The notes below the pieces were generated by a model that worked only from the letters and a program-made list of their open reading frames with translations, searched no databases and had not been told where the DNA came from. A DNA stretch of 63,942 nucleotides, counting the filler, from Octopus bimaculoides (Eukaryota): the NCBI RefSeq assembly GCF_001194135.2. It is 11 parts of 8 records of this genome, joined end to end, with 100 filler letters (N's around TTAATTAATTAA, not from the genome) between each part and the next. Parts side by side here need not be neighbours in the genome. Positions count along the whole stretch, not along the records: positions 4,747 to 9,103 come from NC_068981.1; positions 9,204 to 14,707 come from NC_068982.1; positions 14,808 to 24,909 come from NC_068983.1; positions 25,010 to 27,314 come from NC_068981.1; positions 27,415 to 33,039 come from NC_069000.1; positions 33,140 to 42,264 come from NC_069002.1; positions 42,365 to 49,927 come from NC_068987.1; 4 more parts are not named here. One strand, written 5' to 3'. The stretch's first letter is position 1. Every line of letters begins with the position of its first letter. The translations under genes and the position numbers were made by a program. Shown here in pieces: positions 4,868 through 48,520 of this stretch.

Positions 4868-5030
4868 ATATAGTTGAAATTTACAGAAAAGCAAAACACG
4901 AAGACAGGTGTATAAACAACAAACAGGCGTATTAGTTTAACGCTCGGGAAGGTGAGAAAGTCTTTTACGTTTCGAGCCTCAGCTCTTCAACAGAAAGGAA
5001 CACGAGGAAATAAACAGAGAGAGAATAAAA
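4868..5030 (-). mobile_element. Family H element with hammerhead-like motif
   Basis: Minus strand CTTT-CTGTTGA-A-GAGC TGAG GCTC-GAA-ACGT-A-AAAG; homologous to the 6270 and 21165 copies. Confidence 0.75.
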
Positions 5031-5216
5031 ATCTTTTGGAGCTAGCGGTCATACATATCCATACGTGCGTATGCACACACACACACTCTCTCTCACACAC
5101 ACATCTATATAAACGTCTTTTGTGTGTGCATGCGTGTGTATACGTGTACGTGTGTGTGTGAGCGGCTCTGTGCGTGTATAATTATATATATATATATATA
5201 TATATATATATATATA

Positions 5217-5990
5217 CAGGATGCGGTGAATATAACGTCGTCTAAATTATGCACAAATGAAAATAACTCTGACATCTCATTTTAACAGCTATATTTACCA
5301 AAATTACATAAAAATATCTTGAAATACCAAAGAGTAAATTTATTCAAAAAAAATCGCCATTGGCTTCAACCATTGTCTCCAGACGACTTTGGAATCTCCT
5401 GCAACTCTTCTGGACGGTCTCCTTGTTTAAGTTGGTGAATGCTGCCATAATCCTTGCATCCAGTTCATCTTTGGTGTTACAAGGAGTTTTGTTGGTCGCT
5501 TGCTCAACTGCGCCCCACACAAAATAATCAAGGGGGTTGCAGTCTGGGGAGTTAGGTGGCCAGATGTTAGGGGTGATGTCATCGCAGAAATTGCCCGATA
5601 GCCATGACTGCTTGTGTGGCATGGTGCAGAGTCCCTGTTGCCAGACATAGGGCCTTCCAGCAGCCACCCTCTTGACCCAGGGTAGCACTATCTCCTCATG
5701 GCATTTGATGTAGGCCTCCGTGTTGAGTCTGAGGCCGTGTGGGAAGATGAATGGAGGCACAACGTCACCTTCACTAGTCATCACTCCAAACACCATGATG
5801 TTGATTGGATGTTTGACTTTTATCACTGTCGGTACATGGCATCAAATTCACACCCAGACACCCTGAAATATTTGTATTGGAGCTTCTGGCGCGAATGCCA
5901 AGCATTCCAGCATGTTGTTTCTAAATTTCTTGCAGACGGTGCCAAACTGGGCGAAATTAAAGATATAAAACGACAATTTACTCATCGCAC
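5217..5990 (-). pseudogene. Tc1/mariner-superfamily (maT/DD37D-like) transposon, 5'-truncated and frameshifted
   Basis: IMVFGVMTSEG, YVWQQ then (frameshift) DSAPCHTS, WPPNSPDCNPLDYFVWG, EANGDFF. A terminus TA|CAGGATGCGGTG sits in a TA microsatellite at 5217. Confidence 0.88.
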
Positions 5991-6150
5991 TCTGTTTTTT
6001 TTTTCTCTCCTTGTTTCTTTCTGTGTTCCATTCTGTGGAAGAGCATAGGCTTGAAACGTTAAAGACGTTTTCACTTCCCGAGCGTTATACTAATACATCT
6101 GTTTGTTTTCTACACCACCCGTCTTCGTCTTTTTTTTGTGAATTCTCCCT
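5990..6150 (+). mobile_element. Family H element with hammerhead-like motif
   Basis: CTGTGGA-A-GAGC ATAG GCTT-GAA-ACGT-T-AAAGA at 6033-6065; the element ends in (TA)n. Confidence 0.72.
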
Positions 6151-6269
6151 ATATATATATATATATATATATATATATATATATATACATACAAGCACAC
6201 ACGCGTGCGCGCGCGCACACACACCATGATAGATCGCTGACCACTACACACATTTTTTCTCTCCTTTTT

Positions 6270-6440
6270 TTCTTTTCTTGTTTCTCTCCTTGTTTCTTTC
6301 CGTGTTCCTTTCTGTAGAAGAGCGTAGGCTCGAAACGTTAAAGACTTTCTCAATTCCCGAGCGTTATACTAATACATCTATTTGTTTTCAACACCACCTG
6401 TCTTCGTCTGTTGTATTTTTGTGAATTCTCTCTCTATATA
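6270..6440 (+). mobile_element. Family H element with hammerhead-like motif (tandem with previous copy)
   Basis: CTTT-CTGTAGA-A-GAGC GTAG GCTC-GAA-ACGT-T-AAAG at 6308-6343; ends ttctctctc(TA)n. Confidence 0.75.
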
Positions 6441-7649
6441 TATACATACACACATACACATATGCATGCGAATATTCATATTCATACATATACAAGCATA
6501 CACACACAATACACAATATATAATATCTAGATAGGTAGATAAATGGATGGACGGACAGATGTAAGTATAGTCAAACAGAGAGTGATAGACATGTGGTAAA
6601 TTTCGAACTTGTAACATTTTGAACGGAGCGAGAAAACCTTCATTCGACTTCTAGAGATAGCGGCTACATTTTCTCAAAACACTGCCATTTTTAAAAGATG
6701 AGTCCACCGAATGAATGGTGTCGTCCAGAATAATTTCTCAAAAAATAAAAAAACTGATGGAATAGTATTGGTCACAATACTGGCCATTTCCCCCGAAAAA
6801 GCCACTCACCCATTTGTTTAATGTCACACTTCGACCTTCTAACCTGCCAAAATAATATCACATGACTCTGGGTTTTTCTATGGCTACTACAGGTACTTTA
6901 CGCTCCTCCCACGTCTTTGCCCTTCTTCTCACCCATGTCTCTACGCTTAGGCCCTACCCTAGCCCTGACGCCAAGTCTCTTCCAACTTCGGAATGTCAGT
7001 CCTGTGTAATTTCCTTCTCTACTCATGTTCTTTTCTGTCAACCGACAATTTATTGCTACCCAGGAGGGGCATTAATCGCCTGAATCTCACCAATGCCAGA
7101 CAAACTGTGTAGACCACGGGGCGCTCCTCCTTTCACTAAACCAAACAAATACAGCACAAAACAATACACAAAATAATTGGGTCGACACGAGACAAAAGCA
7201 ACAACAACAACAACAGTAATACCTATAGGTTGAGAAGAATTTCGGCATTGTGATTATTGGCTTTGTTATTCTCCTTTTAGTGATCAATACGGATTTCAAC
7301 AGAGATTGTTCAATTGTATTAACGTTATAATAATACCACCACAGCGACAATGCGTGCTAAGAGGGAGGAAGAGAAGAACGACATACTTTGTAATAATCCT
7401 TTCAGTTTAATTGGCAAGACGCGATTGACTAAACATGTTGAAGGAACAACGCGTCTTTCATAAAAGCCGCTCAATCAGGCGACCTTTACATGGAGGTCAC
7501 GGAACTGCTGTTGTTAAAGAGTCATTAGACAGGCTACAAAGTGGAAATCCGTTCAGACATGCAATCACCTCATCAATTTAACTTGATACTCGGCGGATTC
7601 CACGAGAAAGCGTTACAAACCCGCAGACAACAGGCACAAAACAATGTAA

Positions 7650-45940: not shown

Positions 45941-46275
45941 GTGAAGGCGCATGACTCAGTGGTTAGAGCCTCTGGCTCACAATCATGAGGTAATGAGTTC
46001 GATTCCCTGACCGGGCTGTGTTGTGTTCTTGAACGAGACACTTTATTTCACGTTGCTCTAGTTCAGTCAGCTGTAGAAATGAGTTGCGACGTCACTAGTG
46101 CCAAGCTTTATCGACTTTTACCCTTCCTTTGGATAGCATCGGTGGCATGGAGAGGAGAGACTGATATAGTGGGCGATTGCTGGCCTTCCGTAAATAACCT
46201 TGCCCGGACTTGTGCTTCGGAGGGCAACTTTCTAGGTGCAAACCCATGGACATTCATGACCTAAGAGGGTCTTAA
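45941..46275 (+). mobile_element. tRNA-derived SINE family C
   Basis: A/B boxes and body colinear with 36011-36300, plus ~30 nt absent from that copy. Confidence 0.88.
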
Positions 46276-46809
46276 CTCTTGCCCACTGTATCTGTTATTT
46301 AAGAGGGCAGAGTGATTAGTTTGAGAGGGATTTGTGTGCTATTTTTACCAGGGGGAGCAGCCTTGTAGGGATGCCTTCGTAAATATATGAACGGGAGAAT
46401 AATTGTAGTACCATGATATCGTAGTGGTGGTAGTAGAATTGTGTTGTTATTGTGGTATTACTGTGGTAGTATTGTAGCCCTGTAGTGGCCATAGTAATGA
46501 GTTATATTGTAACAGTAAGGGTGATCGTGAGTGTAGTAGTAGTAGTAGTATTAGTAGTAGTAGTAGTAGTAGTGTTATTGGTGTAATGTTGTGGTGATAA
46601 TGGTGATTAGATTTATTGTTACAGCGTTGTTGTGGCGATTGTAAAGTACCATTGTAGAATTTGTGTTATTGATACATCGTGATTGTTGTTGTCATAGATA
46701 TCGGCTGCTGCCATTTAGCTCTAGGCCGCCCTAAACAAGCAGACATGTGATCAAGGATGTTCCAGCTATGTCCATTTCGTCAGTTTTTTATGGCATATTA
46801 TAAGACCCT

Positions 46810-47202
46810 GTGGAGGCGCAATGGCCCAGTGGTTAGGGCAGCGGACTCGCCGTCATAGGATCGCGGTTTCGATTCCCAGACCGGGCGTTGTGAGTGTTTA
46901 TTGAGCGAAAACACCTAAAGCTCCACGAGGCTCAGGCAGGGGGTGGGGGTGAACCCTGCTGTACTCTTCCACCACAACTTTCTCTCACTCTTACTTCCTG
47001 TTTCTGTTGTGCCTGTATTTCAAAGGGTCAGCCTTGTCACACTGTGTCATGCTGAATATCCCCGAGAACTACGTTAAGGGTACACGTGTCTGTGGAGTGC
47101 TCAGCCACTTGCCCGGTAATTTCACGAGCAGGCTGTTCCGTTGATCGGATCAAACGGAACCCTCGACGTCGTAAGCGACGGAGTGCCAACAACAACAAGC
47201 AA
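46810..47202 (+). mobile_element. Full-length tRNA-derived SINE family B with perfect 10-bp TSD
   Basis: ATAAGACCCT at 46800-46809 and 47203-47212; (AAC)n tail; near-identical to the 11135 copy. Confidence 0.93.
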
Positions 47203-47349
47203 ATAAGACCCTATTTATCTAATACATTCATTTTGAGGAAACAGAACGGTATAGATTGAGGAAGACTACTCTGTTATTTCTCGCAGATCGAGCGATCACC
47301 TTCAGATTTCATGATTGTTGTTGTTGGTGGTGGAGATGTTTGTTATTCA

Positions 47350-47930
47350 CTCGTTCACTTGCAAGCACATTCACTCGCATGTACACTCACTTGTACAGAA
47401 GCTCGTTCGCACGCCCGCACACTCACTAAAATCGCGCACGTCCTCGCTCGCTCGTTCGCTTGCATGCGAGCATGCACGAGAGTGCACACTCGCACACGTA
47501 CCCGCTCACTCACACGCTCGTTCACTCGCATGCATGCTCACTCGCACGCACACACATGCTAACTCTCATGCACGCATGCACGCACACACACTCGCCCACT
47601 CGCAAGTACGTTCACTTACTCAAGCATGCACGCTCACTCATACACGCGCTCGATCACTCGCTCACATGCACGCTCGTTCACACCCATGCATGCATATACA
47701 CTCACTTACGAACACACACCACACTCATGCTCACTCTCACACACTTCAGTTTATGAACAAAAGTTAAACTGTTGACAAACATTCATTTCAGTGTGTGTAT
47801 ATAGATGGATGTGTGTGTGAGCGAATGCATGTATGTGTATGTATGAGTGCATGCGTGTATATGTGAGAACGTGTGTGTGTGTGTGTGTGTGTGTGTGTGT
47901 GTGTGTGTGTGTGTAGTTGTGTGAGTGCCA
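47350..47930. repeat. Degenerate (CACT/CTCG/GCAC)n and (GT)n low-complexity region
   Basis: Seen directly. Confidence 0.9.
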
Positions 47931-48334
47931 GCATCTTGCACATAAAAATTTCATTAACTGGAATTTTACAGCTGCAAACACCAGATAATTACATGTCAGA
48001 TGTTCCCCATTGAGAATGAAGTGTTGGTGGTGGCGGCGGCGGCAGAAGCTACAACATAGGTACGACAAAGAAAAACCATTATTAAAATGATATCGGTAGG
48101 GTTCACACACACACACACACACACACACACAAATTACATATATACACATACACAGACATACACAAATGCATACATGCATGTATGTATGCATACATGCATG
48201 TATGTATGCATACATGCATGTATGTATATATATGCACACACATAACACATGAATTTATATCAAGAATCTTGCAGAATAGGTGCACAAACGTGTGTGTGTG
48301 TATGTATGTATATATATATATATATATGTATATA

Positions 48335-48520
48335 TAAGTTCAAAAAAACACAAAAAACAATAACAAAAAAAGCAACGAAGTGAGGACGTGATACGGATAG
48401 TGTTATTGGACGCTCGGGAAAGGAAGGAGAGAGAGTATGACGTTTCGGGCGGAGCCCTTCGTCGGAAAGACAGAAAGTTCGGAGAATGGAAAAACGGAGG
48501 AAGAGGAAAATGGCACCGAT
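48335..48520 (-). mobile_element. Diverged family H element with hammerhead-like motif
   Basis: Minus strand CCGACGA-A-GGGC TCC GCCC-GAA-ACGT-C at 48465-48439; the tattggacgctcgggaa segment and (TA)n anchor match family H. Confidence 0.68.

Follow-up and report, generated by a model that had tools for sequence, protein, structure and literature searches.

Minimal hammerhead ribozymes occur in the pseudo-long terminal repeats (pseudo-LTRs) of metazoan Penelope-like elements (PLEs), and a 2014 study reported solo minimal hammerheads dispersed through animal genomes (PMC4209133). Here, a stretch of 63,942 nucleotides (nt) of Octopus bimaculoides DNA (assembly GCF_001194135.2, 11 parts joined end to end, hereafter the window) was analyzed for a family of short non-coding repeats that end in (TA)n or TA-rich DNA and carry a hammerhead-shaped motif. 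The family has the same layout as the PLE hammerheads and differs from them by a U at core position 6 (U6), where the published consensus reads CUGANGAH (PMC4209133).

In PAc, a Poseidon element of Anolis, complementary DNA (cDNA) starts 111-118 nt into the open reading frame (ORF) and the hammerhead is cut at +26 (PMC11167929), which by subtraction places the cDNA start 85-92 nt after the cut. The PAc endonuclease prefers AT-rich DNA. Its hammerhead was cut only with the protein present, RNA with ends at the cut was not observed, and catalytic mutants left insertion in vitro unchanged (PMC11167929). The octopus repeats resemble PAc in an element end about 90 nt past the hammerhead cut and in an AT-rich target. 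However, PAc is autonomous, with an ORF that starts in stem II (PMC11167929), whereas the octopus copies have no ORF.

Animal non-LTR retrozymes are likewise short and non-coding, carry a type I hammerhead, and are proposed to be PLE-derived and PLE-mobilized (PMC7229834; 10.64898/2026.07.22.740005); dispersed monomers have also been described (10.64898/2026.07.22.740005). Retrozymes are arranged as tandem arrays in which every unit has a complete hammerhead (a canonical one in PMC7229834), and they give rise to circular RNA, whereas the octopus family has no array in the window and a minimal, altered core. An earlier note on this DNA had called the family retrozyme-like, a term that we do not retain, as both the tandem array and the canonical core are missing. 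Because there is no tandem array, the family is not a retrozyme as defined.

MRC1 of Chlamydomonas is a further non-coding element that is thought to use PLE enzymes, and PLE clades with microsatellite targeting are known (10.1101/2021.04.23.441226). Unlike the octopus family, Chlamys elements are mostly without hammerheads, and elements of the MRC1 type have a known autonomous family that they resemble (10.1101/2021.04.23.441226). A natural change at core position 6 is found in the hammerhead of phage Bcep176 (PMC3088659, PMC7151607). That change is A6C in one phage ribozyme, slow in Mg2+ and better in Mn2+, whereas the octopus change is A6U, is common to copies of an animal repeat, and is known from sequence alone.

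Papers on octopus repeats report Penelope families and many unclassified families of short interspersed nuclear elements (SINEs) (PMC13282606; PMC8967140). One of them lists 893 unclassified, recently active SINE families and uses the word "ribozyme" 0 times in its main text (PMC13282606), and the U6 family may already be catalogued, for example among these 893. None of the open-access literature matches listed concerned an octopus hammerhead family by title or abstract start. Only the shared A6U in an otherwise conserved fold looks new; the motif class and its dispersed copies have been known since 2014.

Sequence and searches

The window is AT-rich animal DNA (36.7% GC, 4563 N) with many microsatellites, and all family-level counts given here are counts of copies inside it. 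Hammerhead positions follow the standard numbering scheme. Motifs were searched with a descriptor for a minimal hammerhead with position 6 unconstrained and a palindromic stem III. A family hidden Markov model (HMM) was trained on the four U6 copies and run on the window with nhmmer. The control set consisted of metagenome loci matching the motif string with positions 6 and 7 unconstrained. It held at least 119 loci, with about 150 estimated; 120 matches gave 105 distinct contexts after identical ones were removed, and 39 loci had short flanks only.

Copies of the repeat and layout of the motif

The window contains the following copies and relatives of the repeat.

4873-5050 (-), copy c4868: 5' boundary motif at 5050-5040, U-rich leader, U6 motif (C3 at 4993, H17 at 4966), 93-nt tail to a TA-rich end
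5995-6150 (+), copy c5990: 5'-truncated, U6 motif (C3 at 6033, H17 at 6060), one change that breaks stem I, G-U in stem II, 89-nt tail to (TA)n
6232-6433 (+), copy c6270: 5' boundary motif at 6232-6242, U-rich leader, U6 motif (C3 at 6312, H17 at 6339), 95-nt tail
21175-21362 (-), copy c21165: (TA)n on both sides, 5' boundary motif at 21362-21352, U6 motif (C3 at 21297, H17 at 21271), 5-bp stem I, 96-nt tail
341-410 (+), stub c340: tail only, no hammerhead, 93.6% identity to c21165 over 78 bp
48338-48625 (-), 5' limit approximate, c48335: separate family, pyrimidine-rich leader, core CCGACGA with C4 and A6 (C3 at 48465, H17 at 48439), stem II GGGC/GCCC, broken stem I, 102-nt tail to (TA)n

A hammerhead-shaped motif is really present in the window. 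The descriptor gave 6 matches, compared with a mean of 0.09 and a maximum of 1 in 150 local dinucleotide shuffles. Five of these matches had been recognized in the earlier note, which overlooked the sixth, at 25134 (-), where a canonical motif adjoins the coding relic of a PLE. Among the listed 150 of 197 Rfam matches (E up to 5), no hammerhead family was present; those listed were nearly all microRNA models driven by microsatellites.

The arrangement CYGNNGA-A-stem II-GAA-ACGT-H was found in the five motif-bearing copies, at the C3 positions given above, and U6 as well as AAAG after H17 in the four family copies. The descriptor recovered the cores of all five, and a site search four of the cores together with all five GAAACGT sites, in agreement with the layout described earlier. 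The extra A between positions 9 and 10.1 and a 4-bp stem II are common to 5/5 motifs, with a G-U pair at 10.1-11.1 in c5990. The palindromic ACGU is also intact in 5/5, and H17 is U, U, C, A and C, so that position 17 is always A, C or U, as had been stated. Stem I is shortest in c48335 (1 bp) and c5990 (2 bp); the other three copies have 4, 5 and 4 bp. The cut predicted between 21271 and 21270 on the minus strand was correctly placed.

None of the five motifs has the canonical C3-U4-G5-A6-N7-G8-A9 core. U6 stands in 4/4 family copies, and c48335 has A6 but C4. The metazoan PLE consensus is given as "U-rich, CUGANGAH, G..C, GAAAN palindrome NU H" (PMC4209133). The family follows it in having a U-rich leader, an additional base behind A9, the G10.1-C11.1 pair and the palindrome, with position 6 as the exception.

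The family proper consists of four motif-bearing copies and one stub, because the HMM scores and pairwise identities single these out. The four U6 copies are 73-90% identical in pairs and had HMM E-values of 3e-47 to 5.5e-39, by construction, as they are the training set of the model. The stub was matched at 341-409 with E 4e-11 and c48335 weakly with E 1e-4; beyond these, the search of the window gave no match below E 0.2. Six related copies had been proposed, and all were found at their places. However, the one at 340 (+) consists of some 70-78 bp of 3' tail without a hammerhead, and the one at 48335 (-) is only a distant relative. By its sequence, c48335 belongs to a separate family and has one tail motif in common with the U6 copies. 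This motif, TTCCCGAGCGT..TAAYAC, had 5 matches in the window and 0 in 100 shuffles.

The repeats are about 160-200 bp long and non-coding. In agreement with the absence of ORFs noted before, no ATG-initiated ORF of more than 17 codons was present in the three copies tested. Copies c5990 and c6270 lie 279 bp apart in the same orientation with a microsatellite between them, and are 90% identical over the aligned part.

A shared U at core position 6

Of the 105 distinct control contexts, 103 have A at position 6, one has C and one has U, and the nearest relative of both exceptions carries A6. Multi-copy control families keep A6 in every member (48/48, 10/10, 7/7 and 5/5). U6 is thus rare in controls, with exceptions whose nearest relatives have A6, and the comparison of sequences therefore indicates that U6 in 4/4 copies is inherited from the source of the family, where, to the extent that four copies can show, it arose once. 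The view of U6 as a family-level core variant was borne out (4/4 copies against 1/105 control contexts). A family-level core variant described previously, U3-A8, is compensatory (PMC4209133). For A6U in the four family copies, no compensation is evident.

Single changes in the CUGA turn were all low in activity in a full mutational scan (PMC9901934). In one ribozyme, A6C takes the rate at 0.3 mM Mg2+ down from 0.30 per minute to 3.6e-6 per minute, with activity kept in Mn2+ (PMC7151607; PMC3088659), and metazoan minimal hammerheads are poor cutters even with A6 (PMC4209133). Because the published CUGA-turn and A6C mutants are slow, the U6 motif is predicted, by analogy, to cut poorly. The earlier proposal that the family self-processes via hammerheads is doubtful on the same kind of comparison, since CUGA-turn mutants are weak, minimal hammerheads are poor cutters, and PAc insertion is unaffected by catalytic mutants.

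Conservation was concentrated in the motif. Invariant columns made up 28/30 of the hammerhead-constrained positions, 1/6 of the free positions (N7, loop II and H17), and 53/88 of the tail, both comparisons with a Fisher p of about 3e-4. In this small sample, the pattern suggests that the layout was selected among source elements after U6 arose.

In short-context folding, stem II was probable in 3/4 copies. U6 favored a competing G5-C15.2 helix in these contexts (0.60-0.98 in three copies, versus at most 0.12 with A6), which faded in longer contexts. In the folding model, the competing helix is a weak hint of a U6 effect.

Element ends and insertion sites

The distance from the predicted cut to the microsatellite is 89 nt in c5990, 95 in c6270, 96 in c21165, 93 in c4868, and 102 in c48335. 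Copy ends do not fall at the cut site. The stub c340 starts about 35 nt past it, as in 5' truncation from a fixed 3' end. Target-site duplications are unreadable within the microsatellites.

In 3/4 long copies, the 5' start is an 11-nt motif directly after microsatellite-like DNA, 57-80 nt before C3. The three copies are alike at 7-8/11 positions of this motif, which was chosen post hoc, and 35/100000 random triples reach that likeness. The end geometry leans, as far as these sequences go, towards a defined element. The earlier term non-autonomous is plausible, given the shared 5' boundary in 3/4 long copies and no coding DNA upstream.

In the control set, 0/112 matches had a microsatellite after the tail, and such anchoring is not general for the motif. 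Upstream extents in the largest control family ranged from 2 to 298 nt (34/48 copies measured). No unit-length tandem repeat was found in 4700-6600, and the other family copies are single.

PLE relics and control loci

Two adjoining features link the window to PLEs.

25027-25134 (-): canonical minimal hammerhead (CUGAAGA, A6, palindromic AUAU, 2-bp stem I) with a 79-nt tail to (CA)n; matched by the descriptor, inverted relative to the coding relic, outside the U6 family
25139-25624 (+): broken PLE coding relic with the C-terminal part of the reverse transcriptase (RT), a cysteine linker and a GIY-YIG endonuclease (Pfam GIY-YIG E 9e-7; 73% to P0001 over 153 aa)

The hammerhead piece and the coding relic are joined within 5 nt. 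Homologues of the relic are named Octopus bimaculoides, with 78-80% identity, and its cysteine linker presumably places it in the Neptune type. An inverted arrangement of hammerhead and coding parts is known for PLEs (10.1101/2021.04.23.441226).

A second probable PLE relic lies at 59608-59889 (-) and 60249-60395 (+), with a GIY-YIG-like frame without a Pfam hit. It has an inverted hammerhead-like motif with A for G5, a 6-bp stem II and an AG-aa-CU stem III, and its tail runs up to (TA)n. A third endonuclease-like fragment was seen by eye at 63420-63677 (+), without a GIY-YIG Pfam hit. In tblastn with four PLE proteins, the sole match in the window was at 25139-25594, and no coding DNA adjoined the family copies. 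The family tails show no likeness to the tails of the PLE relics in the window.

A PLE RT or endonuclease match was present in 4/120 control loci; each of the four has the motif on the strand of the coding region and downstream of it. Stem I, which the search pattern left unconstrained, had at least 3 pairs in 18/55 distinct arm pairs of the controls, compared with 7.6 (maximum 15) with shuffled partners. The consensus layout, the end geometry, the relic in the window and the control loci with PLE coding give good support to the PLE origin and PLE-type mobilization put forward earlier.

In control loci L010, L018, L020, L072, L076 and L093, many copies stand as short outward-facing inverted pairs of hammerhead plus tail; PLE insertions can therefore be little more than that. 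The word AAGATGGCG occurs about 30 nt upstream of the hammerhead core in L026 at 1402-1435 (-), and also in L023, L028, L039, L058 and L105. It is a possible pseudo-LTR promoter element, and we take it to be YY1-like.

The family tail pattern had 0 matches in metagenome, genome and viral contigs, and the U6 core pattern had 0 matches in viral contigs. A looser pattern found 1 locus in the viral contigs, which appears unrelated. Translated family copies, used as probes for mis-predicted proteins, gave no match at E up to 1 and otherwise three unrelated repeat proteins. In a run-level search with 5230-6150, 20 of the 24 rows listed contained some of that segment, under five organism labels and one metagenome label; as the segment includes a mariner fragment, these rows are not counted as evidence for the family.

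Origin and role of the U6 motif

We tentatively favor, at a probability of about 45%, a reading in which the copies are short PLE-mobilized repeats, copied in trans into (TA)n, whose poorly cutting U6 hammerhead is retained for its RNA shape and not for self-processing. By analogy with PAc of the anole, a PLE protein would bind the RNA of the family, and its GIY-YIG domain would nick AT-rich DNA. The cDNA would then start internally, about 90 nt past the hammerhead, and run back through the motif to the 5' end of the element. U6 may lower cleavage, so that the short RNA would stay whole and the copy would keep its leader, while the fold would be selected for protein recognition or RNA folding. 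A more specific form of this reading seems to us rather unlikely. In it, an abundant SINE-like family of the octopus arose from a Penelope pseudo-LTR, the disabling A6U became fixed and the fold was selected; a natural pseudo-ribozyme would be the RNA handle of the protein, with cleavage off and the short parasite copied whole.

Several observations weigh against the favored reading. The 5' motif is short, was chosen post hoc, and is missing in c5990. In the largest control family, 12/34 copies end less than 20 nt upstream of the core, and very short stubs of hammerhead plus tail are normal for PLE families (PMC4209133), so short length is no proof of non-autonomy. An autonomous partner with the family tail was not found among the window relics and three contig collections. 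There are just four copies, all in one window, so that U6 could go back to one founder mutation in a local group of subfamilies. Neither a natural A6U hammerhead nor an A6U assay in a minimal hammerhead was found among the open-access literature matches listed. In addition, two-sided changes are found in 0/8 stem pairs; 6 are invariant, one changes from G-C to G-U, and one stem I pair is broken. The earlier note had described stem II as kept through sequence change. This does not hold within the family, where the stem written GAG/CTC is again GAGC/GCTC, with a loop of 3 nt; the sole two-sided stem II change, GGGC/GCCC, is between families (c48335 versus the four copies). Seven stretches of 124-150 nt fold no better than shuffles (z -1.0 to +1.5). 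Core conservation can equally mean real catalysis, because the natural A6C hammerhead still cuts, better in Mn2+, and the PAc hammerhead is protein-assisted.

As a close rival, which we regard as quite possible, the copies may be ordinary ends, made up of pseudo-LTR and tail and either 5'-truncated or inverted, of an autonomous PLE family whose master carries U6 by chance. There would then be no independent non-autonomous element, and the shared 5' point would mark where transcription starts in the pseudo-LTR. For the most part, the minimal hammerheads found in animal genomes are lone motifs, "probably related to truncated PLEs" (PMC4209133). The control families are rich in short stubs, c340 and c5990 are truncated, and the inverted piece of the PLE relic in the window consists of core and tail only, 5 nt from the coding part. 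On the other hand, 0/4 long copies reach coding DNA, three copies start at a similar motif beside a microsatellite, and the multi-copy control families are all A6. A non-autonomous retrozyme-like element that truly self-cleaves despite U6, as a dimer or with protein, and spreads via cleaved or circular RNA appears improbable. It would account for a core whose conservation exceeds that of the tail and of the free positions, for an H17 that is never G (U, U, C, A), for the intact ACGU palindrome in five motifs, and for c5990 and c6270 standing head to tail; natural core variants including A6C can be active (PMC7151607; PMC3088659). However, this adjacent pair is split by a microsatellite and is 90% identical over its aligned part, no tandem array is present, and the copies end off the cut site, with the stub starting beyond it. 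The hammerhead dimer fold lies 11-38 kcal/mol above the dimer minimum for the four copies, in a model that omits tertiary contacts. The competing helix favored by U6, in short contexts only, also argues against cleavage, and 8/9 predicted frog retrozyme dimers were uncut (10.64898/2026.07.22.740005).

A neutral fossil, in which a dead motif sits in a SINE-like repeat under no current selection, would fit with only four copies, the lack of covariation, and the two stem changes in c5990 that resemble decay. Conserved blocks occur in the tail as well, where the best 30-column window has 23 invariant columns. Variation sits at the hammerhead-free positions, however (1/6 invariant versus 28/30), and we consider this explanation very improbable.

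Hammerheads of PLEs are poor cutters, are absent from Naiads, and were dispensable for insertion in vitro. If the favored reading is true, the family multiplied with an uncompensated core change while the rest was conserved, which would set apart a role as a shape from a role in cutting. A pseudo-ribozyme handle, if it exists, would offer a direct test of what hammerheads do in Penelope elements, and U6 and A6 form a ready pair for an assay. If U6 instead cuts with the help of protein, the hammerhead consensus for genome searches widens; such searches require A6, and the U6 family would escape them.

Other features of the window

Fragments of DDE transposases were found at 5344-5841 (-), mariner-like by eye with a weak Pfam hit, and at 3595-4131 (-), with a DDE_1 hit of E 9e-14. 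The start of c5990 lies close to the former. Hammerhead words in permuted order stand at 37391-37445 (+), with GAAACGC before CTGACGAAGGG within an inverted repeat; by inspection, the stems do not close as a hammerhead.

A second dispersed family, 70-88% alike, occurs at 20765-21120, 26134-26375, 29166-29488, 30760-31057, 37005-37291, 39687-40056 and 57059-57168, and is presumably an octopus tRNA-derived SINE. Paired runs of 44 N flanking a 12-base AT-only spacer occur nine times (4647-4746, 9104-9203, 14708-14807 and others) and are likely an assembly or masking artefact. An inverted pair of 382 bp with 95% identity is located at 11142-11523 and 46810-47191, with a weaker third copy at 14453-14637.

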